From NCBI GenBank assembly GCA_043750125.1, contig JAYVCD010000210.1, forward strand, positions 1 through 11,146: a stretch of DNA of 11,146 bases. Direction: 5' to 3'. The notes under the pieces were generated by a model that did no database searches, was not told where the DNA came from, and saw only the letters and a program-made list of their open reading frames with translations. This DNA is from Archangiaceae bacterium (GTDB taxonomy: Bacteria > Myxococcota > Myxococcia > Myxococcales > Myxococcaceae). The translations under genes and the position numbers were made by a program. Positions 1 to 10,451 of the stretch are shown here, piece after piece (positions within the stretch are counted from its first letter, which is position 1; each line of letters opens with the position of its first letter).

Positions 1-940
1 GGCAGGTGGCGCGAACCAGTGAGCTCTGAAACCCGGCGTCCTCGGTGCGCAGGATCCACTGCTGTCCGATCGCGTTCGGGTTGGGCACCGGGCTGTAGAT
101 CTGATTGCCGACGGTCAGCATCCCAAAGCCCATTCCATTGGCGCTGCCGCCGGCCGCAGTGAAGCTGACGGTCGAAAAGACATTGCGGGGAACGTTGACT
201 GGGGTGAAGGCCCCGTTGAGCAGATCGAGATTGATCTGGACGAAGCCTCCATCGACGACCATCAGCGCGGCGGGTCCTCCGTCGCGGTCGAACAACACGA
301 CATCGTTTATTTCACCGGTCGGAAAGGTGCGAAACGCCGGGCCGCCATCGACGTTCAGCGCGAGCGTCGAGCTGCCGCCGCTGGTCACATACCCCCACGC
401 AAAATAGTCGGCGCCGCTCGGGACGTTGAGCACCGAAAGGGGCGAGGCCGCCTCGAAAAAATCCGTCAGCGGCAAGTTGAGGACGTTCCAATCGGTCGTC
501 AACAGACCGGCGGTTGGAGCCGCGCGCTGAAGGCGAACCTGCCCTCCTCCGCTGCGCCAGACGTAGGCATAGAGGGCCCCATTGGCCAGGCGCCGCAGCC
601 GGCCGGTGACCCCCGCGCCGCCCGAAAGAAAGACCTGGCTGGCCCCGCAGCTGCCGGAAAATTGCACGGCGGAGGTCCCGTCCAGCAGGCCGACCAGACA
701 GCCCGGGGCCCTCCAGGCCGCACTGGTGAAACTGCCGATCGCGAATTGTTGAAGCGAGATTCCGGCCGCGCTGCTTCCCGCGAACAGCCCCATCTGTCCG
801 TTCGGGTTGATCGACGAGACCACCGCGAGGCCGGCATCGAGCGTGTCCACATCGGTGGGCGTTCCGGGAATCAGCGAAGACTTCCAGGTCGCGCTCGCGG
901 GCAGCGCAAGCAAGATCGCTGCGGTGATCAGGGCGCGCAT
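1..940 (-). CDS. Secreted beta-rich protein (propeller-like N-terminus), 3'-truncated by the window edge; not in the ORF track
   Basis: Translated by hand from ATG at 940-938: 313 codons with no stop to the window edge (MRALITAAILLALPASA|TWKSSLIPGTPTDVDTLDAG...GMGFGMLTVGNQIYSPVPNPNAIGQQWILRTEDAGFQSSLVRATC). Clear Sec signal peptide ending A-S-A. The ATG overlaps the upstream TGA stop (TGATG). Five DGG/DAG motifs. Confidence 0.9.
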   Translation of the reverse strand, partial: MRALITAAILLALPASATWKSSLIPGTPTDVDTLDAGLAVVSSINPNGQMGLFAGSSAAGISLQQFAIGSFTSAAWRAPGCLVGLLDGTSAVQFSGSCGASQVFLSGGAGVTGRLRRLANGALYAYVWRSGGGQVRLQRAAPTAGLLTTDWNVLNLPLTDFFEAASPLSVLNVPSGADYFAWGYVTSGGSSTLALNVDGGPAFRTFPTGEINDVVLFDRDGGPAALMVVDGGFVQINLDLLNGAFTPVNVPRNVFSTVSFTAAGGSANGMGFGMLTVGNQIYSPVPNPNAIGQQWILRTEDAGFQSSLVRATC

Positions 941-3900
941 CAGTAGGCGGCCTCGGCGCGCAGGTAGGCCCGGTTTCGTTCATCGGGCTGCCCGTCATTG
1001 AGGCCCAGGCCACTGAAGCCCAGCGCGGTGAAGCCTGCGGCGAGCAGGAAGTTCTCGTTGAAGCGATAGCCGACCTCGCCCCGAATCGCGGTGAGCTGCC
1101 CGTCGGAAGCCTGGGATCGCCGCGCGACTTCAGCGGCCAGCTCGAGGCCGGCGATCACCCGCACCGCCGGACGCAGCGACGCAGACAACAACAGGGTGCG
1201 CGAAGACTCGAGGCCGGACCAGGCGGCGTGAAGCCCGGCTCCGAGGGTAAAGCGCGACCCCCATCGAACGGCCGGCATCAGGGACACCAGATCGAGGCTC
1301 CGCTCGGCAAAGCCGCCCTGCGAGGGAGGAGCCAGCTCACGCTGCAGAGTGTACCGCGCCACCACCGCGCCCCAGGAAGGTCGCCACGCCACCGACACTG
1401 TGCCCTCGAGTAGGCGGGCGATCGTCGTCGCGCCCTGGGCGGTGTGCGCGAACTGAAACCGGGCGGCGCCACTGAGCTGCTCGAAAAATCGGACTTCGCC
1501 CCCCGCGGCCGCGACCCACTGCACGAGCGGACCATCGGCGCGCACCTCGCCCCGTCCGAACACCCGGGCGGACGGGCGCACCAGCGAAGCGGTGATTCCT
1601 CCGGCGTCGCGGGTGATCGTCGGCGCATCGTCGAGCACCCGTCGCAAGCCGCGCTCGTAGCGGGCGGAGACTGAGAATCCGGAACCGAGCTCCTGGGTCA
1701 ACCCCACCGCGCGCGACAGCTTGAGCGAGGTCGCGTCATGCGCGGCGAGGTCTTCGACGAACACGGCCGCGGTGGGACCCACCTGCTGGCGAGCGCCGGT
1801 GAACGTGCGGGACTCGCCGAGCGAAGGCGAATCGGCGTCGAAGGCGTGACCGCCGTAGTGGGTCACCTCTCCGTCTTTCCAGCTGGCGTGGCCCCAGACC
1901 TGAGGACCGATGACCGGCCCCCAGCCGCCGCGCACGCCCAGGTCCACCGTTGAGCTCAGGTGCAGATCCACGCCGGCTGAGCTGAACGAGTCGTCCCATT
2001 TTCCGGGCCCGCTTCCCCGCTCGAGGACGCGCTGCTTGTGCCCGGCGATCAGCGTCACCCGATCGCTGACGCGCAAGCGGGCGGACACGCCCACCGAGGT
2101 CCGAGCTCCGGTTCCTTCGACGACGGAAAGCTCGGTGTCGCGCGCTTCGAGCCGAATGCCCCAGCGCTCGGTCTCCCACCCTGCCCCGCCGCCCACCACC
2201 CGGGCGTGGGCGTTGAGGTTGTCGAAGGGCCGGCGCGGGTCCGAGCCGAGCCGGTCGTCGAACAGGCCGGTCACGATGATCGGCCCCAGCGGCTGATTGA
2301 AGCGCGCAGAGATCTGCCGAAACAAGACCGGGTCGAAGTGGGACGAATCTGAAAAGCCCTGGGTGCGCTGCCGGTACGAGGCGTCGAAGAACCCTTTCCC
2401 GAACAGCCCGCTGCTTCGGGCCCGAAGCGTCAGGGCCCAACCATTGGTCGCGGGCCCCTGCGGCCGAATGAACGACAGGCCCCCGTCATCGCTGAACGCC
2501 AGGCCTTCGAAGATGCCTTCCGAGCGCGCCACTTCAGCCCAGAGCGACACCGGCCCCAGCGGAGCGAAAGCCCTCGCATGCAGCAACGAGTAGCCGGCCC
2601 CCCGTTCGGCCACGCCTCCCGCGGCGAGGGTCACCGGGCCTAACTTCCCCGACAGCTCTCCGCCCAGCGCCGCGCCCCGCGAGGCAGCCAGCTCGGTGTG
2701 CTCGTAGTCCACCCACAGCACCGCCGCGCCTCCCGAGGTGAGCGGGTCGAAACCGAGCAGCGGCTGCGAGCCCATCAACGACAGCGGCTGGGTGAGCAGG
2801 ATCCGTCCCGAGAGGTAGTCGATGGTGTAGTCCCGCCCGCGCACCAGGTGGCGTTCCTCGAGGGGAAGGCCGGTGCTGCCGTCGGAAATTTCGACCCGAA
2901 CCAGCTCGCTGCCCTGAACGATCGCAAAGTTCGACAGGTAGTAGAGGCTGCCGCCGGTCGACTCGAAGCGCTCGTGCGCTGCGCGTCGCGACAGGCCCGA
3001 AGTGGGATCTCCTTCGGTCGGCGCGGCGAAGCCCCGAGCCCGAACCTGCACCCACTTCTCGTCGGGACTTCTCACGTCGAGGAAGCCGCCGAACAACGCG
3101 CGGTGGTAGCGGCCGACCTCGGTGTCGCCGACCCAGGCGCGGGTGGTCCCGTAGCCGACGCTGCCGACGCCCTCTTTCGACAGCTCGACCCGGACTCTTC
3201 CGCCGGCCGGGTTGGACGCTTCGATCGCCGCGTCGTCCCCGAAGACCAGCGGGGTGCGAAGCCAGTCGAGGCTGCGCTCGAAGACGCCGACCTCGCGGGT
3301 CCCGACCAGCGCCATCGGTCCTTGCGTTCGCACCCCTTCGACATCGGTGTCGCGCAAATCAATTTCTGCGGCGAGGTCGACCTGGCCAAACAGCCGAGCG
3401 CGCGCCAGGCCCGCTCCTCGTCCGGTCAGCCTGACCCCGGTTCCCAATCGCCCGACGTCCAGCGAGCCTTCGAGATCCAGCATTCCGACGAGCAAGGGCG
3501 CGTTCGACGTCTCGACCGAGAGTGTTGCCGTGACGGCGGGCCGGCCCGGCACTTCCCACTGCACCACCATCGCCTTCGGGGTGGCGGACTTCACCTGCGC
3601 CGAAGCCCGGCCGCTGGGGCCGACCAGGACGCTGTACCCCTCGAAGCTGACTTTCGTGCCGGGAGCAGCCTCGACCGACACCACCGCCCCGGTGGCGATC
3701 GCCGGAGGAATCGACAGCGACCCCAGCGGCTGGGGAAGCATCGGAGCAATCAGCACTCCGCTCGCGCGGCGCACGACTTCCACCCGTTGAGTAAATAACG
3801 CCACCCGACCATCGGCCGACTGCACCACGAGGGGAACTTCATGGGTCCCGGGGCTCAACGAGAGCCACGCCGTCCAGACCCCGGTGGCGGTGACCTCGGC

Positions 3901-4431
3901 GCGGACCTCGGACACCTTGACCGAGCTGCCTTCGGCGACTTTTCCAGTCAATTGAAGTCGCACCCCATCGCCTTCGAGCACTGCGCGGGGAGGCACCTCG
4001 AGCGAAGGCCCCAGGCTCTGCGCGGTCGGGGTCGGCCGACGCACCGCAAAGTCGATGGTTTCCAGCGCTCCCATCGAGATCTCCACCGTCGCGCTTTCGG
4101 GAGTCACCTCCGCTCCGGGGAAAAGCGCGCGGGGGTCGACCTTCAATCGATGGCGACCCTGGGTGAGGCGACCGAAGGTCAGGGCATCGGGCCGGCGGGC
4201 GTCGAGCGCCGCGAAATGAAATCGCCCAGCAGAATCGGTCAGGGCCATGAGCCCGGTCTCCATCACCACCTTCGCCCCGATCAGGCCCGGCTCGTCTGCG
4301 CTGCAGCGGCCGTTGCCGTCGAGGTCCTCGCAGACGCGTCCAACCAGCGCTCCGTCGGTCGTGTATCCGACCGAGCGCACCTGCGCCCACGCGAATGCCG
4401 GCACCACGGCCAGCAACCACGCAGCCCTCAA
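940..4431 (-). CDS. Large outer-membrane protein (1163 aa): signal peptide, SdrD B-like domain, Ig-like segments, very large C-terminal beta-barrel
   Basis: Start reassigned from 4521 to TTG at 4431, which overlaps the upstream stop (TTGA) and gives the signal peptide MRAAWLLAVVPAFAWA|QV. GRVCEDLDGNGRCSADEPGLIGAKV...TDSAGRFHF...LKVDPRAL fits the SdrD B-like pattern. Many amphipathic alternating strands from about residue 310 onward. It ends RAYLRAEAAY, with a terminal aromatic typical of a BAM beta-signal. Confidence 0.88.
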   Translation of the reverse strand: MRAAWLLAVVPAFAWAQVRSVGYTTDGALVGRVCEDLDGNGRCSADEPGLIGAKVVMETGLMALTDSAGRFHFAALDARRPDALTFGRLTQGRHRLKVDPRALFPGAEVTPESATVEISMGALETIDFAVRRPTPTAQSLGPSLEVPPRAVLEGDGVRLQLTGKVAEGSSVKVSEVRAEVTATGVWTAWLSLSPGTHEVPLVVQSADGRVALFTQRVEVVRRASGVLIAPMLPQPLGSLSIPPAIATGAVVSVEAAPGTKVSFEGYSVLVGPSGRASAQVKSATPKAMVVQWEVPGRPAVTATLSVETSNAPLLVGMLDLEGSLDVGRLGTGVRLTGRGAGLARARLFGQVDLAAEIDLRDTDVEGVRTQGPMALVGTREVGVFERSLDWLRTPLVFGDDAAIEASNPAGGRVRVELSKEGVGSVGYGTTRAWVGDTEVGRYHRALFGGFLDVRSPDEKWVQVRARGFAAPTEGDPTSGLSRRAAHERFESTGGSLYYLSNFAIVQGSELVRVEISDGSTGLPLEERHLVRGRDYTIDYLSGRILLTQPLSLMGSQPLLGFDPLTSGGAAVLWVDYEHTELAASRGAALGGELSGKLGPVTLAAGGVAERGAGYSLLHARAFAPLGPVSLWAEVARSEGIFEGLAFSDDGGLSFIRPQGPATNGWALTLRARSSGLFGKGFFDASYRQRTQGFSDSSHFDPVLFRQISARFNQPLGPIIVTGLFDDRLGSDPRRPFDNLNAHARVVGGGAGWETERWGIRLEARDTELSVVEGTGARTSVGVSARLRVSDRVTLIAGHKQRVLERGSGPGKWDDSFSSAGVDLHLSSTVDLGVRGGWGPVIGPQVWGHASWKDGEVTHYGGHAFDADSPSLGESRTFTGARQQVGPTAAVFVEDLAAHDATSLKLSRAVGLTQELGSGFSVSARYERGLRRVLDDAPTITRDAGGITASLVRPSARVFGRGEVRADGPLVQWVAAAGGEVRFFEQLSGAARFQFAHTAQGATTIARLLEGTVSVAWRPSWGAVVARYTLQRELAPPSQGGFAERSLDLVSLMPAVRWGSRFTLGAGLHAAWSGLESSRTLLLSASLRPAVRVIAGLELAAEVARRSQASDGQLTAIRGEVGYRFNENFLLAAGFTALGFSGLGLNDGQPDERNRAYLRAEAAY

Positions 4432-6323
4432 GGCTTGACCTTGGCCAAGCCGATCACCTGGGTCTCGAGGTCGACGACCGAGATCGTGGCGGGTCCTTTC
4501 AATTCGCTCACCCGCACCCACGCCCGACCGTTTTTCATTTCCGGTGAGCTCACCACCCCCGACGACACGCTCACCGCCACCTTGCGCTCAGGCAACAATT
4601 CACCCTGCGCAGACTCGACCCAGTACTGCGCTTCGCTGCCCGAAGCTTCGACCCGGACATTGACCGGAACCGCCGGAGCCACGGTCAGCTCGAGGTTCTG
4701 GGGAGCACTGCCCGGCCGAGATCCTTCCGGGAACACCCATCGGCCCCCGTCGCGAACGTGAACGGTGATCGACAGTCCCGGCCATTCGCTGTGGCCCACT
4801 TCGACTTCGCCATCGACCAGCGGCCCGAGCCGGGCGACCCCGTCGGCCTCGGTCATGATCGTCTGCGTTCCCACCTTCAGCGCCTGGGCAGGAACGGGCA
4901 ACCCGGCAAGGTCCGTCACCGCGGCATGAAGTGACCCGCTCTCGGCCCAGACGACCAGGCGCGCGGGCTCAGTTCCCGCCGGCCCCCAGGCCCGAACGGT
5001 CAGTGTCCGTTTCCCGACCGGCGCCGCAGGTTGCCAATCGACCTTCAACTTCCCAGGAACGCTCTCGAGGGTCGCTGCGAGCTGTCCGGAACCCGCGGTC
5101 ACAGTCAGCAGCGCCCCAGGACGCGGACGCCCCAACGCATCGGCGACTTCCACTCTGAGCGCTGCGCGCCCCCCCAGGTGCACCAGCGGCTCATCGATCG
5201 CGACGCGGGCTTGAACCGCGGGCCCCTGCAGCAATTGAAGGCTCAGATTCTCGTGCGCACTGATGGTCCCCTGGCGCCAGCTGGCGGCCAACGCGTCGGG
5301 CTTGTCGGAAAGCTCTCGCGGAGCCACGTACGTCCATTCGACGACGCCATTCTCGAGCGGTCGCGCGGAAGACAGCGTTCCCTTCGTGGCCACCAGCTGG
5401 ACCTTGGCGCCGGTGGCCACGTTGCCGAACGGGTCCGAGGTCGCGCACATCACCCGCGCCCGCGACACTCCGTCGGCGGGAAGGCGGGTCGGGCTGATCA
5501 CGCAGGCCAGCTGATCCGTCGCGGGCACCTGGAGATCAAACGCAGTCACCCGGCGGTTGCCGAGGCGATCAATCGCGGTGGCCTGACCACTTCCGTACCC
5601 GGGCGGCACCACCACCGGCACTTTGAACCGGCCATCGGGCCCCGCCTGCACGGGTCCGAACTTTTGACCCGCGATCAAGATTGAGAAGTCGGCGTTGGGC
5701 TCGGTCTGCCCCGGCAGCTCGACTGCGCTCGCGAGCGGAACGCGAAGAGCACCGAAGGCGCCGTGCACCGCCTGCGGGTGGGGCCAGGCGGAGAAGGCCA
5801 CCACCACTGCCACTTCGGGGTACCGCGTGGTGGGCAAGACGTAGAGCGCGCGATACCGCCCCGGAGCGACGCGGGCGAGCCCTTCAATCGACCCCACATT
5901 GGCCCGCAGCACGGGAGGGGCCGATTGAGGGTCTGGCTTTCCCTCGGCGCCGAGCACTTCGACTGAGAGCTCCACCGCCGTGTCGCGGTTCTTCACCGGG
6001 GGCGCGCCCACCCACCGCAATGAAATTCGCGAGGCAGGCGGGCCGACTTCGTAGGTGGCCTCTGCGATCAGCCCCTGCGCTTCGGCTTTGAGCTTCAGCT
6101 GCCGAGCGCCAGGTCGGGGCACGACGAGGAAGCCGCGATCGCTGCGGCGAGCGTCCCCGCCTTCGACCCCGAGCTTTGCGTCTCGAGCGGCCTGCGATGG
6201 ACCGCCTTCGCCCACGCGACGAACCGCCACTTCAAACCCATCGGGAGAAACGAAGCCCGCGGGCCCGAGCAATTCGAGGCGGTCGGCAAACGCGGCGCTG
6301 GCAACCAGCAGCGCAACGAGCAT
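4428..6323 (-). CDS. Secreted/periplasmic protein with tandem bacterial Ig-like (invasin/Big_1-type) domains (~631 aa)
   Basis: Long ORF with signal peptide MLVALLVASAAFA|DRL. The segment PTRLPADGVSRARVMCATSDPFGNVATGAKVQLVATKGTLSSARPLENGVVEWTYVAP is a typical invasin/Big_1 module, with similar modules at VEVLGAEGKP...GSI...GRYRALYVLP and VEVADALGRPRPGA. The start is ambiguous: ATG 6323, or TTG 6338 which has AAGG upstream. Confidence 0.85.
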   Translation of the reverse strand: MLVALLVASAAFADRLELLGPAGFVSPDGFEVAVRRVGEGGPSQAARDAKLGVEGGDARRSDRGFLVVPRPGARQLKLKAEAQGLIAEATYEVGPPASRISLRWVGAPPVKNRDTAVELSVEVLGAEGKPDPQSAPPVLRANVGSIEGLARVAPGRYRALYVLPTTRYPEVAVVVAFSAWPHPQAVHGAFGALRVPLASAVELPGQTEPNADFSILIAGQKFGPVQAGPDGRFKVPVVVPPGYGSGQATAIDRLGNRRVTAFDLQVPATDQLACVISPTRLPADGVSRARVMCATSDPFGNVATGAKVQLVATKGTLSSARPLENGVVEWTYVAPRELSDKPDALAASWRQGTISAHENLSLQLLQGPAVQARVAIDEPLVHLGGRAALRVEVADALGRPRPGALLTVTAGSGQLAATLESVPGKLKVDWQPAAPVGKRTLTVRAWGPAGTEPARLVVWAESGSLHAAVTDLAGLPVPAQALKVGTQTIMTEADGVARLGPLVDGEVEVGHSEWPGLSITVHVRDGGRWVFPEGSRPGSAPQNLELTVAPAVPVNVRVEASGSEAQYWVESAQGELLPERKVAVSVSSGVVSSPEMKNGRAWVRVSELKGPATISVVDLETQVIGLAKVKP

Positions 6324-6383
6324 TGCCGAGTTCGCCAAGGCCCGAACCTTAGCTGAGCTGATCAGCCACTCGTGACCGGAAAG

Positions 6384-8096
6384 TTACTTCCGGCCGCGGG
6401 CACGGGCACGGGCGCGAACTGCCTTCGCGGCGCGGCGGTGCATCAACAGCCACGCGGCGACGCCCAGGATGATCAGCACCGTCGGAGCCCCGCCTGCGGC
6501 CGAGCATCCCATTGCAGGGTCCGCCGCGTTCGGCGCAGCGGTCAGGTCATCTTCGTGGTGTCCCGAGGAATCGTCGTCGTGTTCGCCGTCGTCATCATCC
6601 CCGTCGTCGTCTCCATGGTGGTGGATCGAGCCCGGAGGAGGCGTGCCGGCAGCCGTACAAGACTCAGTCAGCGTCGCGACGACGGTCGTGATGCTGTTGT
6701 GGGTGTCTCCATTGTTGACGTGGAGCGTGACGTGATTGGCGGTGACGAGATCGCCGGCTTCGGGGTGATCTCCACAGCCCTGGGTGCTGCACGAGTGGAA
6801 GACGTACTGGCTTGCCTTGGCCAAATCATAGGCAGTCGTGGGATGCGGGCCGCCGAAGCCGCCGCGGTATTTGCAGGTGGTGATCGCGCCCGAGTTCAGC
6901 TGGTAGGTGAAAGTCACCCAGTCGTTCGCGGAATTGCCCGCGGTGACCGCGAGCGTCGCGGGAATCGCGAACTTCATCGCCGGGGTCATCGCCGCCGAGG
7001 CGTCGAGGTAGAGAGTGGGGCTGTATTTCTTGCTCGCAGTGAGAGTGACCGTTCGAGCAAGGCACGCGTTGGGGTTCGGGAGCATGAAGGTGGCGCCCTT
7101 GACGTTGCGCGCCGAGTTGCCGTCTTCGTTGCTCGCCCAGACCACCCGCACCGAACCGTCCGCCAGCACCGTGATGTCGTTGAGCTGCTCGGTAACCGTG
7201 GGAGTGTTGGTGATCTGGTAGAGCCGATTGCCAACGATGTCGTAGACGAAGAGGTCCGTCGTCGAGCCGATCGTCGGCCGGCTTTCGAAGGCGATGAAGT
7301 TTCCGGCGATGCTCGGGTTCCCTTCGAAGCCGGGCAGCTGCAGCTGAGCTTCGGGCCCACCGGCGACCGGGCGCCAGAAGACATCTGAGTTCCCAGCGCG
7401 GAAGGAGTCATAGACGACCAGGGTCCCGTTGGTGTCTGGGTTGCCCTCGGCATTGAGCGAGGCAGAGACGACACCCACAGTCCAGGCAGCGCCGCTCTTC
7501 TTCGCCTGCCAGATGTCGCAGTTGCTCACCGAAGAATTGCAGTGTTCCCAGGTGACGACGTTGCCGTCGGGAGACACCGAAGGGCTCTGATCCGGGTTGG
7601 TGTCGGTGGTGATCCGCTGACGGGTTGCGGTCAACAGATCGTGGATGACGAGCTCTCCGTTGGCTTCGAGATCAAAGTCGATGTACGCGACGGTGTTGCC
7701 GCCGATCGCAGAGCCCAGTCGGGTGGTCGAAGGCGCAGGGTCGATCTCGATCGCGGGCGCGGCCGTCGCAGCGTCGAACACCATCACTGCCGTCGTCAGT
7801 CCACTGATCACGCGCGAGAAGACCACCTTGCTGCCGCTGATGTCTGAGAGCAGGTCCCGGGAGGACGCGCCCATCGGGATCTGGGTGTCGACCCCTGTCG
7901 AGAAGCGGTAGTAGCGAATGCTGAGGTCCGAGCTGTACGCCGCCCAGTCGCCGCTCACGTGGGGGTCGTTCTGATCTCCCGCGCCGGCGTTGATGGTGAC
8001 CGGAAGCAACGTCGGCAGTGCGCCATTTACCGGCACGACAGCCAGTGCCACCGCAGGAAAGATCACCACCGCCATCGCCAACAGAAGCCGGTTCAT
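6384..8096 (-). CDS. MYXO-CTERM-sorted cell-surface protein (570 aa): TolB/PD40-like beta-propeller, Cys-containing beta domain, His/Asp-rich linker
   Basis: Start reassigned to ATG 8096 (SD AAGGGGA upstream; signal peptide MNRLLLAMAVVIFPAVALA). About seven blade repeats (DQNDPHVSGDWAAYS, DLLSDISGSKVVFS, RLGSAIGGNTVAYI, DQSPSVSPDGNVVTWE, EGNPDTNGTLVVYDS, EGNPSIAGNFIAFES, EQLNDIT...VRVVWAS). The C-terminus GCSAAGG + hydrophobic helix + RRAAKAVRARARARGRK is a MYXO-CTERM pattern. Confidence 0.9.
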   Translation of the reverse strand: MNRLLLAMAVVIFPAVALAVVPVNGALPTLLPVTINAGAGDQNDPHVSGDWAAYSSDLSIRYYRFSTGVDTQIPMGASSRDLLSDISGSKVVFSRVISGLTTAVMVFDAATAAPAIEIDPAPSTTRLGSAIGGNTVAYIDFDLEANGELVIHDLLTATRQRITTDTNPDQSPSVSPDGNVVTWEHCNSSVSNCDIWQAKKSGAAWTVGVVSASLNAEGNPDTNGTLVVYDSFRAGNSDVFWRPVAGGPEAQLQLPGFEGNPSIAGNFIAFESRPTIGSTTDLFVYDIVGNRLYQITNTPTVTEQLNDITVLADGSVRVVWASNEDGNSARNVKGATFMLPNPNACLARTVTLTASKKYSPTLYLDASAAMTPAMKFAIPATLAVTAGNSANDWVTFTYQLNSGAITTCKYRGGFGGPHPTTAYDLAKASQYVFHSCSTQGCGDHPEAGDLVTANHVTLHVNNGDTHNSITTVVATLTESCTAAGTPPPGSIHHHGDDDGDDDDGEHDDDSSGHHEDDLTAAPNAADPAMGCSAAGGAPTVLIILGVAAWLLMHRRAAKAVRARARARGRK

Positions 8097-8384: not shown

Positions 8385-8924
8385 CTACTCGATCACCCGG
8401 AACTCGACCCGTCGGTTTCTCGCGCGGCCTGCTTCGGTGTCGTTGCTTCCCAGCGGCGCAGATCGCCCCTTGCCCCGGGTGATCAGCCGCTCGCTCTTGA
8501 CCCCGCGCTGAATCAGCGCCTGCCCCACCGTCTGCGCGCGCTGCAGCGACAACTGCTGGTTGAACGCTTCGTCGCCGGTGGCATCGGTGTGACCTTCGAT
8601 CTGCACCCGCTTGATCTGGTCATTCTCATTGAGCAGCTTCGCGAGCAGCTCGAGCAGCTTTGCGTTCTTCGGCAACAGCTCGGCCGAGGCGACGTTGAAG
8701 ACGATTTTCCCGCGGATGTTGATCATTCCGCTTTCGATCTTGATCTGTGGAACGTCGGGACAGCCATCGCCATCGCCCCCGGGCTCTTCGGCCACATCGG
8801 GGCATTCGTCCTTGCTGTCGGCGATCCCATCCCCGTCGGTGTCTTTGCCGCCCAGATTTCGGCTGCTCGCCGCGCAGCCAACGCCGAGGGCAGCGATCAC
8901 CACGAGGAGGGCCCGAAGGTGCAT
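8385..8924 (-). CDS. OmpA-family peptidoglycan-binding lipoprotein with thrombospondin type-3-like Ca-binding repeat (179 aa)
   Basis: Start reassigned to ATG 8924: MHLRALLVVIAALGVG-C lipobox; DTDGDGIADSKDECPDVAEEPGGDGDGCPD (TSP3-like); OmpA_C motifs IEGHTDATG..FNQQLSLQRA and GRARNRRVEF. Confidence 0.93.
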   Translation of the reverse strand: MHLRALLVVIAALGVGCAASSRNLGGKDTDGDGIADSKDECPDVAEEPGGDGDGCPDVPQIKIESGMINIRGKIVFNVASAELLPKNAKLLELLAKLLNENDQIKRVQIEGHTDATGDEAFNQQLSLQRAQTVGQALIQRGVKSERLITRGKGRSAPLGSNDTEAGRARNRRVEFRVIE

Positions 8925-9143: not shown

Positions 9144-10451
9144 TTAGCCGTTTCTTACCAGTCGCCGCTCACCAGGCGCCTCGTGCCAAGCCAGCCCACG
9201 GCGTTGGAGCTCGGTCTCATAGAGCGAGCTGGAATGCAGGCGCTCAGACACCCAGACAGCGCACGCGGACGACAGCACCAGAGGAAGGACGATCGCGTAG
9301 TCACCCGAGAGCTCGAAGCCGAGAACTGCCGCCATGATCGGAGCGTGCGTCGTCGCAGCGCAAAGAGCGGCAAGACCCACCAGCGCGTACGCCGTCGCGG
9401 GAGCGACGTGACCTTCAGCAAACAAGTTGAGCGCGTTTCCATAAAGCGCCCCCAGACACGCACCCACCAACAGGGTGGGTGTGAAGACGCCGCCCGGAAG
9501 CCCGGATGAGACCGAGAGTGTGGTGGCCAGCGGTTTTGCCAGAAGCAGGGCCACCACTACCGTCAGAGGCATCTTTCCCGACAACAATTCAGACAGCGGC
9601 TCGAAGCCGTTACCGGCGACTTCAGGGAGCGCGATCGCGATCAACCCGACCCCCAGTGCTCCCAAAAGAATTTTCGGCAACAGGCTCAGGGAGCTGCCCC
9701 CGGCCGTCTGCTCGCCCTTGTTCAACAGCTTGATGAATCCGGCACCCACGACTCCGGCCAGAAGCCCCAATACTGCAAATGCCAACAGCTCGCCGTCGTT
9801 GACCAGCCTGAAGGCGCGCGCGCCGTAGATGGGCCCTTCCCCGATGGCCCAGCGCGTGAGCGTGCTCGCCAGCGCGGTCGCTACTGCCGCCGGCACGAGC
9901 ACATCGAGGGTGATGACACCGGCAACGACCTCAACCATGAACAACATCGCCGCCAACGGCGTGTTGTACGCCGCGGCGAACCCTGCCGCCGTTCCAGCTG
10001 CGACCAACGCGCGGTGTTGCTTGCCATCAAGTGAAAACCATCGGCTCAAGGAACTGCCGAGCGCGCCGCCAAATTGAATGAGAGGGCCTTCGCGACCGAT
10101 CGAGGCGCCGCCCCCCATCGCGATCCAGCTCGCCAGCGCCTTGAAGGCCGTCGCTGGCGCCGACATTGTTCCGCGGCCGATTGCGACCGCCTCCATCACC
10201 TTGCCCACCGAAGCGCTCTGCTTGAAGCGCGCAGAAAGTCCCAGCACGCCCCACGCAAGCACGCCGCTGCTCAGCGACAACAGCAGGCACTCCCACCAGT
10301 GCAGCCGGCGCAAGACATCGAGCAAGTTGCCCGTCCCAAATAGCAACTGCGAGGCGCTGTGAACGGAGGCACGAAATGCGATCGCGAAGGCAGCCGAGCC
10401 GAGCGCCACCAGCAGCAATGCCACAAAACCACGCAGGCGAGCATCACTCAT
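9144..10451 (-). CDS. ClC-family chloride channel / H+:anion transporter, no CBS domains (ClcB-like), 435 aa
   Basis: Multi-pass hydrophobic protein with ClC signatures GASIGREGPLIQFG, AGFAAAYNTPLAAMLFMVE, SGLPGGVFTPTL, AATTHAPI...FELSGDY and terminal SLYE. AGGGA lies upstream of ATG 10451. Confidence 0.95.
   Translation of the reverse strand: MSDARLRGFVALLLVALGSAAFAIAFRASVHSASQLLFGTGNLLDVLRRLHWWECLLLSLSSGVLAWGVLGLSARFKQSASVGKVMEAVAIGRGTMSAPATAFKALASWIAMGGGASIGREGPLIQFGGALGSSLSRWFSLDGKQHRALVAAGTAAGFAAAYNTPLAAMLFMVEVVAGVITLDVLVPAAVATALASTLTRWAIGEGPIYGARAFRLVNDGELLAFAVLGLLAGVVGAGFIKLLNKGEQTAGGSSLSLLPKILLGALGVGLIAIALPEVAGNGFEPLSELLSGKMPLTVVVALLLAKPLATTLSVSSGLPGGVFTPTLLVGACLGALYGNALNLFAEGHVAPATAYALVGLAALCAATTHAPIMAAVLGFELSGDYAIVLPLVLSSACAVWVSERLHSSSLYETELQRRGLAWHEAPGERRLVRNG

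Follow-up and report, generated by a model that had tools for sequence, protein, structure and literature searches.

A small SprA-like domain inserted in a predicted giant outer-membrane barrel of Myxococcota

Introduction

The type 9 secretion system exports its cargo through SprA (Sov), an outer-membrane translocon with a barrel of 36 strands, and giant barrels are regarded as a speciality of the Bacteroidota. In an Archangiaceae bacterium (Myxococcota; contig JAYVCD010000210.1, of which we analysed a stretch of 11,146 nucleotides, here called the window), an earlier note had likened a short segment of a putative barrel protein to SprA, and had suggested that the protein might be a smaller relative of that translocon. 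The locus raises the question of whether the segment betrays a SprA homolog in this phylum or a small domain shared by otherwise separate barrels. We find that the likeness to SprA is real but limited to one small domain, and that the barrel protein is probably no member of the SprA family or of a type 9 system but represents a separate family of predicted giant barrels.

Results

The flagged segment belongs to a conserved insert domain

The minus-strand translation of positions 2782-2970 is RFESTGGSLYYLSNFAIVQGSELVRVEISDGSTGLPLEERHLVRGRDYTIDYLSGRILLTQPL, identical to the text quoted in the earlier note, and corresponds to residues 518-580 of the open reading frame 940..4521(-) and to residues 483-545 of P0003, the 1158-aa database form of the barrel protein (Table 1); the plus-strand reading gave an unrelated translation and was rejected. 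That the segment interrupts the strand pattern as an insert was borne out by the AlphaFold model, in which strand 475-485 and the next long strand (564-576) are separated by five short strands and a helix (491-548), so that predicted strands 8 and 9 are joined by a 78-residue connection. No other connection on the short-turn side is long, and this one is predicted to carry a beta-sandwich of about 75 residues (pLDDT 86.8 when modelled alone). In the 45-sequence family alignment, residues 487-545, about 5% of the length, hold 18 of the 85 invariant columns, a degree of conservation that excludes a chance feature; the invariant motifs of the domain are TGGS, GSE, R.DY and GR.L, and its invariant residues include D529, Y530, G537 and R538. 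The domain was present in 120 of the 141 distant representatives among the matches listed, and it is a signature of the barrel family.

Table 1. Features of the locus, in window coordinates
Feature	Positions	Strand	Remarks
Downstream secreted protein, no known family, cut by contig end	2..940	-	ATG overlaps barrel stop (TGATG)
Giant barrel protein gene (MXAN_4440 family)	940..4431	-	likely TTG start 4431; stop TGA 942-940
Predicted transmembrane beta-sheet, ~42 long strands	946..3495	-	P0003 308-1157, insert included; DSSP of AlphaFold model
Small beta-sandwich insert domain (predicted)	2728..2961	-	P0003 486-563; between predicted strands 8 and 9; short-turn side
Flagged segment	2782..2970	-	end of predicted barrel strand 8 and most of small insert domain; P0003 483-545
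Three predicted N-terminal beta-sandwich domains: SdrD_B-like, Glucodextran_B-like, Ig-like	3517..4353	-	P0003 22-300; AlphaFold model
Secreted invasin-like Ig-repeat protein, 636-aa ORF, conserved partner	4428..6338	-	Invasin_D3 2.2e-11, Big_1 3.8e-09
TolB/PD40-type beta-propeller protein	6384..8096	-	TIGR02800 9.8e-10, NF041894 4.5e-4; start nt 8096

The host protein is predicted to form a barrel of about 42 strands

The barrel protein is the ortholog of Myxococcus xanthus MXAN_4440, a family for which the NCBI name 'flagellar motor protein' is probably a misnomer and due for correction. The likely TTG start overlaps the stop of the upstream gene (TTGA); alternative starts lie at 4416 (the database call, P0003) and at a GTG at 4521 (the longest ORF). 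The earlier assignment of the protein to the outer-membrane barrels proved sound, and the protein has the marks of a BAM substrate: as read from the sequence, it has a signal-peptide-like N-terminus (...LLAVVPAFAWA/Q) and an aromatic end as in a beta-signal (...YLRAEAAY), the AlphaFold model agrees, and all top fold matches are outer-membrane barrels. Pfam gave nothing useful for the whole protein (OMP_b-brl, E 0.13; Glucodextran_B, E 0.17), and autotransporter and intimin barrel families had no Pfam or NCBIfam match to it even at E<=10. Besides the weak Glucodextran_B match, the assignment of the three N-terminal domains draws on an SdrD B-repeat found in the PDB with the family profile (E 0.049) and on structural matches (VIA rows) to 1ulv_A, 4ief_B and 7dm0_B.

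The model of the 1158-aa protein (pLDDT 83.4, pTM 0.80) displays connections of 2-52 residues (median 6; longest 52, 24, 14 and 13) from odd to even strands and of 2-7 residues, bar the 78-residue insert, from even to odd strands, and this loop-length parity is regular across all 42 strands. Since short turns are by convention periplasmic in outer-membrane proteins, the parity suggests that the insert sits on the periplasmic rim, beside the three N-terminal domains. In the fold search, small porins align across model residues 304..1158, so the first (308-321) and last (1149-1157) strands are probably neighbours; the lumen of such a barrel, if round, would measure roughly 8 nm when scaled from SprA (36 strands, 7 nm). 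A hydrophobic-alternation test of the strands was dropped because it did not separate barrel strands (31 of 42) from soluble sandwich strands (10 of 12).

Strand number, single-barrel closure and the side of the insert are predictions read from DSSP, loop lengths and alignment ranges, and they might reflect a modelling artefact, the protein in reality folding into two barrels, or into one of smaller size that has a plug or a folded-in sheet, with the insert as an ordinary inter-domain linker module. The alignment comprises just 45 fairly close sequences, several connections of the model have a pLDDT <50, and an AlphaFold-barrel survey set aside 38- and 40-strand counts as likely errors (bioRxiv 10.64898/2026.03.07.710327). 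We nevertheless consider an artefact very improbable, because in addition to the pTM and the regular parity, 995 of the 1158 residues have a pLDDT of at least 70, all five models scored 78-83, the SprA chain 6h3i_A aligns over 601 residues spanning 305-1158, and three 38-strand barrels are predicted in Deinococcus radiodurans (PMC9388160).

Similarity to SprA is confined to the small domain

TIGR04189 (SprA/Sov) was the sole NCBIfam family matched by the barrel protein, which scored 15.3 bits (E 0.002) at full length and 20.8 bits (E 4.4e-5) when the 106-aa domain was searched by itself, the latter match covering HMM positions 601-642 of 2319. The barrel protein is the only match to the SprA model in the 6.17-Mb genome, and the match to the domain was seen in 14 of 26 relatives; among distant members it was found for the domain in 1 of 14 and at full length in 0 of 31 (E<=0.1). 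The score of the whole protein lies far below the curated cut-off of 200 bits, with 42 of the 2319 HMM positions covered, and SprA above cut-off occurred in none of 151 Myxococcota genomes. Searches of the PDB with the barrel protein sequence, the family profile or the domain profile retrieved no SprA chain; apart from chance rows, their matches were limited to an SdrD B-repeat and repeats resembling PLL lectins. The SprA-model segment 589-654 also matches a second Myxococcota family (up to 27 bits), which consists of open frames of 1340-1740 aa with a barrel-type C-terminal Phe, Met or Leu.

Structural comparison agreed with the segment match. The modelled domain superposes on the three SprA chains 6h3i_A, 8gl6_A and 8gl8_A with Z 6.7-7.1, and no other entry in its fold-match lists equals their sequence identity of 25-27%; 71-73 residues align on the first two (Z 7.0-7.1, rmsd 1.8-1.9 Å), and the rmsd on 8gl8_A is 3.2 Å. 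A counterpart of the small domain that spans positions ~600-650 of the SprA model, and reaches SprA residue 748, is present in the barrel protein. The SprA alignment ends at this residue in all three chains but begins at 200, 240 or 262, which makes any assignment of the domain to equivalent strands of the two barrels unreliable. The resemblance to SprA proposed in the earlier note is thus confirmed for the segment, and the insert is distantly related to one small SprA domain. With the whole model as query, SprA topped the fold search (6h3i_A, Z 13.5; 8gl6_A, 13.2; 8gl8_A, 11.0) and had the most residues aligned of any match (593-641), at an rmsd of 12.5-12.7 Å; FimD reached Z 12.7 and porins 10.3-12. 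Foldseek with the whole model returned generic barrels at TM <0.3, SprA being absent from the best 50 matches listed, and with the insert domain it gave nothing at E<=0.001. Look-alikes in the ESM Atlas fell into unnamed or SdrD/CarboxypepD_reg clusters, none of them a SprA cluster.

These data bear on the idea of a true, stripped-down SprA homolog, a minimal type-9-like translocon without the motor and carrier proteins of Bacteroidota, in which the motif would be a relic of common descent. Such a homolog would account for SprA being both the only NCBIfam match and the best whole-model match, and for the close superposition of the small domain, and the SprA segment in the second Myxococcota family would fit domain inheritance among giant barrels. 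We judge it unlikely, however, because the sequence match amounts to 15-21 bits against 200, no SprA chain emerged through the family profile or among the Atlas look-alikes, and the whole-model Z lies less than 1 above that of FimD and only about 1.5-2 above those of porins, at an rmsd of 12.6 Å. The size also argues against a smaller relative of SprA, since a chain of half the length (1158 aa, against about 2400 for SprA) is nevertheless predicted to contain ~42 rather than 36 strands; this count puts the model in the size class of SprA without reproducing its strand number. There would moreover be no room for a cap like the large extracellular one that closes the SprA barrel, which also has a lateral opening, because the longest connections on the long-loop side have just the 52, 24, 14 and 13 residues given above. 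Homology to SprA, as first proposed, is supported for the small domain but not for the whole protein. We detected no PorV, CTD or GldLM context; in the genome (89.4% complete), Por_Secre_tail, GldM and GldL were without match, but the control genomes were equally silent, which limits what these searches can say.

The insert has a fold common in phage tails and necks

As modelled, the insert has the fold of the Ig-like domains of phage tails and necks. Phage neck, tail-tube and tail-fibre proteins (DT57C neck 8HQO_R, Carin-1 8CK1_B, the T7 gp17 N-terminus 7BOZ and the YSD1 tail tube 6XGR) matched it with Z 6.7-8.1 and rmsd 2.3-4.4 Å over 70-84 residues, at identities of 10-19%, below that of SprA. 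The model NF052337 (tail_tube_6XGR) gave weak HMM matches in 4 of the 26 close members and in 6 of the 14 distant ones, the best of them with 19.9 bits against a cut-off of 60 and hence short of membership. Among the same 14 distant members the SprA model matched one, and this preference for the tail-tube model further weakens the case for a SprA homolog. The concern that the motif might be a promiscuous small domain is partly justified, as proteins of the phage neck, tail tube and tail fibre commonly share its fold (Z 7-8.1). PHROGs yielded nothing below E 0.1 for the insert domain and Pfam nothing useful, RES appearing in 1 of 26 members. In contrast to its phage counterparts, the domain is here spliced into a membrane barrel and is not part of a virion.

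A secreted Ig-repeat protein is the constant partner

The gene of the invasin-like Ig-repeat protein lies directly upstream of the barrel gene in all 30 loci examined (18 of 18 close and 12 of 12 distant). A complex model covering parts of the two proteins scored 0.69 (best of three controls, 0.00), a value reached by 116 of 157 solved complexes and by 2 of 215 mismatched pairs, counts that hold roughly because own alignments were used here. The runs agree in 100% of contacts, the pLDDT of the partner is at least 87, and the predicted interface joins the last Ig domain of the partner to the second N-terminal domain of the barrel protein by edge-strand pairing. The model supports docking of the Ig-repeat protein on the barrel protein. 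Edge-strand pairing between Ig-like domains is a contact type that models readily draw; all three controls nonetheless scored 0.00.

The beta-propeller protein, whose linker is acidic (His/Asp) and whose tail is of the MYXO-CTERM type, with a Cys motif, a hydrophobic helix and an Arg-rich end, is a frequent but inconstant neighbour: its gene lies upstream in 15 of the 18 close loci and in 6 of the 12 distant ones. For the downstream secreted protein conservation is weak, tblastn matching it in 6 of the 18 close loci and in none of the 12 distant ones.

The barrel family is widespread and is fused to adhesin-like repeats

The giant-barrel family was found in 171 of 301 sampled Myxococcota genomes. 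The family profile gave 7210 matches, many of them proteins of 1700-7400 aa in which the C-terminal ~1000 residues match. In 13 such fused relatives that were scanned, the domains N-terminal of the barrel match were DUF11 (8), OmpA (6), Invasin_D3 (2) and Chlam_PMP repeats (1), and in fused relatives repeats of the cadherin, Calx-beta, DUF11 and Chlam_PMP types run to thousands of residues. Repeats of these kinds are typical of surface adhesins. When our set of fused relatives was searched by phmmer for a Rosetta-stone relation, only the OmpA lipoprotein matched (35 proteins), through its generic OmpA domain. The idea that the locus is a split form of the fusion is accordingly drawn from architecture, because neither the Ig partner nor the propeller had a phmmer match. 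Our literature search returned no paper or experiment on any family member, and for MXAN_4438-4441 it returned MXAN_4438 alone, in the available part of a review.

The OmpA domains of the fused relatives show that the part adjoining the barrel is periplasmic, which suits a tether as well as a conduit. The barrel might be an envelope connector and no channel, anchoring a periplasmic Ig-like rod, made up of its own three domains and the docked partner, by which the outer membrane would be tied to the peptidoglycan or the inner membrane, as in SlpA and OmpM. In 6 of the 13 fused relatives the peptidoglycan-binding OmpA domain lies just N-terminal of the barrel-proximal sandwich domains, the order of N-terminal wall-binding module, spacer and large C-terminal barrel is that of SlpA (PMC9388160), SlpA chains are among the fold matches (8agd_A, 7zgx_A and 8ae1_A; 7zgx_A with Z 8.8 over 472 residues), and the window contains, 3 kb upstream, a gene for an OmpA-type lipoprotein. 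The barrel protein and its 45 aligned relatives are, however, without a wall-binding domain, the lipoprotein gene is a neighbour in 0 of 18 close loci, the repeats of the fused relatives are of the adhesin type named above, and a tether would have no need of a ~42-strand barrel, so that a connector appears rather unlikely to us. In SlpA and OmpM the tie is formed by a barrel together with a coiled coil and an SLH domain. SlpA of D. radiodurans (30 strands, outer membrane-peptidoglycan connector; PDB 7ZGX, 8AE1) resembles the present protein in its very large C-terminal barrel and N-terminal periplasmic extension, and it shares a wall-binding domain with the fused relatives; it differs in that the barrel protein has neither SLH domain nor coiled coil, and in a fold match of just Z 8.8.

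Discussion

The reading that we prefer, and to which we assign a probability of roughly 50%, is that the insert belongs to a giant barrel of ~42 strands from a family separate from SprA, which together with its Ig-repeat partner serves as a conduit or in surface display. The barrel and the co-translated partner would form a fixed complex, held together by strand pairing between the last Ig domain of the partner and the second N-terminal domain of the barrel protein, and the wide pore might be the conduit or housing for adhesin-like Ig repeats that reach the cell surface. In relatives such repeats are fused to the N-terminus of the same barrel, in proteins of up to 7000 aa. The complex may thus work in the manner of a split, oversized autotransporter or of a SprA-like pore, with the insert and the N-terminal domains guarding or organising the periplasmic mouth.

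Type V barrels have 12 or 16 strands. The autotransporters and intimin/invasin resemble the preferred reading in that adhesin-type repeats are joined to an outer-membrane barrel, covalently in the fused relatives and here, as modelled, through the docked partner with its Big_1/Invasin_D3 domains; they differ in strand number (~42 predicted here) and in their families, to which the barrel protein has no match, and export through the pore is in our case conjectural. SprA/Sov (PDB 6H3I, 8GL6, 8GL8) is likewise a giant single-chain outer-membrane barrel and shares the small beta-sandwich domain, whereas the partner is here an invasin-like Ig-repeat protein and the phylum is Myxococcota.

Two sources name SprA as the largest membrane barrel known (bioRxiv 10.64898/2026.03.07.710327, PMC7463736), and an unnamed family with a still larger predicted barrel is present in more than half of the sampled Myxococcota. 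A bolder reading joins these results: proteins of the MXAN_4440 type would be the largest single-chain membrane barrels yet seen (~42 strands against 36 in SprA) and, with the docked partner, would constitute a new motor-less export or surface-display machine across Myxococcota and neighbouring 'delta' lineages, while the conserved periplasmic-rim domain that they have in common with SprA and the second myxobacterial family would be a trace of an ancient origin shared by giant protein-conducting barrels; taken as a whole, we hold this to be doubtful. The small SprA-like domain offers a residue-level handle on a possible shared assembly or gating module of giant barrels. Because the partner gene is fixed and the barrel is in relatives fused to giant adhesin-like proteins, the family may account for the passage through the outer membrane, or the anchorage in it, of some very large surface proteins for which no secretion system is known. 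Since M. xanthus, a genetic model, possesses MXAN_4440, deletion, tagging and cryo-EM are directly possible.

A large barrel that is encoded with a partner and works only with it is also found in the plug-and-barrel systems LptD-LptE and MtrB-MtrA (26 strands), although their partners, a lipoprotein and a decahaem cytochrome, are unrelated to the Ig-repeat protein, and the window contains no Lpt or cytochrome genes. LptD chains were among the top Foldseek matches of the whole model, within the TM range given above.

Gene and predicted fold

The 63 residues quoted in the earlier note are the exact translation of window 2782-2970 on the minus strand, with correct coordinates, and the plus strand over the same positions gives a different translation. 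They belong to a frame whose form in the public protein collection is P0003 (1158 aa); residues are numbered throughout on P0003, in which the segment covers 483-545. The upstream gene's stop codon shares bases with a TTG at 4431, a start that gives a better signal peptide; the stop of the barrel gene overlaps the ATG of the downstream gene. Both overlapping junctions suggest that partner, barrel and downstream gene may be translationally coupled.

Features of the window and open frames of other Myxococcota loci (L numbers are fetched loci)
Feature	Position	Strand	Description
Barrel-protein frame	940..4521	-	contains the segment
Downstream junction	938-942		TGATG
Upstream junction	4428-4431		TTGA, if TTG is the start
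Partner gene	4428..6338	-	secreted protein, Invasin_D3/Big_1 Ig domains
PD40 propeller gene	6384-8096	-	MYXO-CTERM-type tail
OmpA lipoprotein gene	8385-8924	-	LGVGC lipobox, thrombospondin type-3 calcium-binding repeats, C-terminal PF00691 (E 5.9e-23)
ClC-type chloride channel or H+/Cl- exchanger gene	9144-10451	-	Voltage_CLC (E 1.5e-81); unrelated to the segment
Distant-locus frames after the barrel gene	L087:11692-15615, L093:11777-15148, L090:11535-14672		1046-1308 aa, YCF48/BNR-type propeller
Second-set open frames	L094:5441-9463, L095:5385-9629, L096:4813-8922, L097:4410-9446, L098:4726-9957

A Pfam scan of the barrel protein found no family. The AlphaFold model, based on an alignment of 45 relatives (mean pLDDT 83.4, pTM 0.80; all five models 78-83), contains a signal helix, three beta-sandwich domains at 22-300 and, according to its DSSP strand list, 42 long strands from 308 to 1157; the C-terminus, ...LRAEAAY, is a typical barrel end. 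Connection lengths alternate very regularly in this 42-strand model: on one side they measure 2-52 residues (median 6), on the opposite side 2-7 residues throughout, with a connection of 78 residues as the sole exception. Small porins and SprA (the outer-membrane translocon of Bacteroidota type 9 secretion) align over the model range 304/305..1158, which suggests that the first strand of the sheet lies next to its last. From the strand list, the alternation and this alignment range we infer one closed barrel of 42 strands. Short turns of outer-membrane proteins face the periplasm, and by this usual rule the N-terminal domains and the 78-residue connection would lie on the periplasmic side. The segment is that connection, which leads from strand 8 (475-485) to strand 9 (564-576), and it does interrupt the strand pattern as had been proposed, with five short strands and one helix in the model.

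The protein is thus predicted to be a giant single-chain outer-membrane barrel, a known kind, here with a distinct partner. The literature searched yielded no description of a 40- or 42-strand outer-membrane barrel; a passage of PMC9388160 reports three predicted 38-strand barrels in D. radiodurans, and SprA is still named the largest known barrel in a passage of a 2026 preprint (bioRxiv 10.64898/2026.03.07.710327).

Relatives, partner and proposed role

A word-indexed search returned 243 relatives at E<=0.001, the best 120 of which (44-79% identity) are nearly all from Myxococcaceae or Archangiaceae. One relative cluster contains MXAN_4440 of M. xanthus DK1622, for which no mention was found in the literature searched, and the family has a testable model organism. 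Where the family is named in NCBI and UniRef (P0011, P0012, P0055, P0099 and other database relatives), the name is 'flagellar motor protein'; a MotB/OmpA domain is absent from these members of about 1200 aa, and the name may derive from the OmpA/MotB-like domain of fused relatives. A profile search extended the family to 7210 representatives at E<=0.001 (809 at E<=1e-30), and of the 301 Myxococcota genomes sampled, 171 carry it, among them 91 of the 115 from the window's own family; both tallies count one genome marked as unpublished (G196). Many relatives are 1700-7400 aa long, with the match in the last ~1000 residues; the named ones come from Desulfuromonas and 'Deltaproteobacteria' genomes. 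The upstream parts of 13 scanned long relatives carry DUF11 (8/13), OmpA (6/13), Invasin_D3 (2/13) and Chlam_PMP (1/13), together with Calx-beta, cadherin-type and other adhesin repeats.

The partner gene lies directly upstream of the barrel gene in all 18 close loci and in all 12 loci from other Myxococcota families (25-35% identity). Complex prediction of barrel-protein residues 20-305 with 618 residues of the partner scored 0.69 against 0.00 for the best of three controls. Of 157 solved complexes 116 attained this mark, as did 2 of 215 mismatched pairs; because our own alignments were used, these counts are a rough guide only. All contacts (100%) agree between runs, partner pLDDT is at least 87, and the partner's last strand (608-615 of the 618 residues) is predicted to pair with edge strand 220-225 in the second N-terminal domain of the barrel protein. 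The prediction supports binding between the two proteins.

The barrel protein and the Ig-repeat partner, translated together, would assemble into a single complex in the outer membrane. Relatives carry adhesin-like repeats as an N-terminal fusion to the barrel protein, and here a separate chain would dock at that end. Scaled from SprA (36 strands, 7.0 nm; PMC7463736), a round barrel with about 42 strands would have a pore ~8 nm in width, through which folded Ig domains could pass; this favours a role as conduit or in surface display. The main rival, a SlpA-like envelope connector, is suggested by the OmpA domains of the fused relatives. The window also has a lipoprotein gene whose product ends in a peptidoglycan-binding OmpA domain; in none of 18 loci does this gene accompany the barrel operon. 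As the favoured conduit, the complex might resemble a split autotransporter of outsize dimensions or a SprA working without a motor, with the insert and the N-terminal sandwiches gating or organising the periplasmic mouth.

Of the 18 close loci 15 have the PD40 propeller gene farther upstream, as do 6 of the 12 distant ones. Within the last ~100 codons of this gene, a strongly acidic, His/Asp-rich linker (HHHGDDDGDDDDGEHDDD...) directly precedes the tail; the linker may be metal-binding. The downstream gene is weakly kept (6/18 close loci); in three of five scanned distant loci the next frame encodes a BNR-type propeller of ~1000-1300 aa instead (PSII_BNR, E 1e-17 to 6e-6; Dictyostelium-type Cys repeats in two of the three).

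The inserted domain and SprA

Modelled alone, the insert is a compact beta-sandwich (pLDDT 86.8). It is the family's most conserved part, residues 487-545 holding 18 of the 85 invariant columns of the family alignment, and its TGGS, GSE, R.DY and GR.L motifs recur in 120 of 141 distant representatives, drawn from the exhaustive profile search, some of them as long as about 6900 aa. The only NCBIfam match of the barrel protein is TIGR04189, the SprA/Sov model. The full-length protein reaches E 0.002 and the insert alone E 4.4e-5 (20.8 bits, HMM positions 601-642 of 2319); among 26 close relatives, the domains of 14 match as well. When the structure of the insert was searched against 48,161 representative chains, SprA 6h3i_A ranked seventh (25% identity over 71 residues, Z 7.0, rmsd 1.8 A), and a second structure search gave 8gl6_A (Z 7.1, 27% identity) and 8gl8_A (Z 6.7, 25% identity, rmsd 3.2 A); identities to SprA chains are the highest in both lists. 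The resemblance to SprA that had been noted for the segment is therefore borne out by the profile match and by the SprA chains at Z 6.7-7.1. At the top of both lists stand domains from phage necks, tail tubes and tail fibres (8hqo_R, Z 8.1; 8ck1_B, 8.0; also the T7 gp17 N-terminus, 7.9, and the YSD1 tail tube, 6.7), tail_tube_6XGR matches 6 of 14 distant family members (best E 4e-4) against one for SprA (E 0.0016), and PHROGs and Pfam searches of the domain found nothing. On these grounds the insert is a member of a widespread small fold, of which SprA's copy is the nearest by sequence for this subfamily.

The whole protein is not a member of the SprA family, since the SprA model matched it at no more than these 42 HMM positions and the family profile retrieved no SprA chain from the PDB; the two barrels may still have a common ancestor. 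The model matched none of 31 distant full-length members, and neither of two Atlas searches listed a SprA cluster. In the whole-model fold search SprA chains ranked highest, with Z 13.5 and 13.2 over 593-601 aligned residues at an rmsd of about 12.6 A, ahead of FimD (12.7) and ordinary porins (10.3-12); with rows within 1 Z counted as tied, SprA differs from the other matches only in residues aligned, that is, in barrel size. SprA has 36 strands and an extracellular cap, whereas more strands are predicted here and the predicted barrel leaves no chain for a cap. No SprA was detected in the source genome (89.4% complete) or, over the cut-off, in 151 sampled Myxococcota genomes; the cargo tail, GldM and GldL also had no match in the source genome, which is weak evidence because the controls were silent too. 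A weak match of the SprA model (E<=1, below the cut-off) also occurred in Thermus thermophilus, one of 14 control genomes.

At E<=0.01 the SprA model matched in 23 of the 151 Myxococcota genomes, always at positions 589-654, and the stronger matches (up to 27 bits) lie outside the window protein's family. Five of these, when fetched, proved to be a second set of Myxococcota open frames of 1340-1740 aa, whose matches to this part of the SprA model are stronger than that of the window's protein. All five end in a C-terminal Phe, Met or Leu of barrel type, and two have a repeat-rich N-terminal region. Between the second set and the protein of the window, only the small domain is shared (82 residues at 33% identity, E 0.002). 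This sharing hints at a deeper link, and the small domain may be a recurrent fitting of giant barrels.
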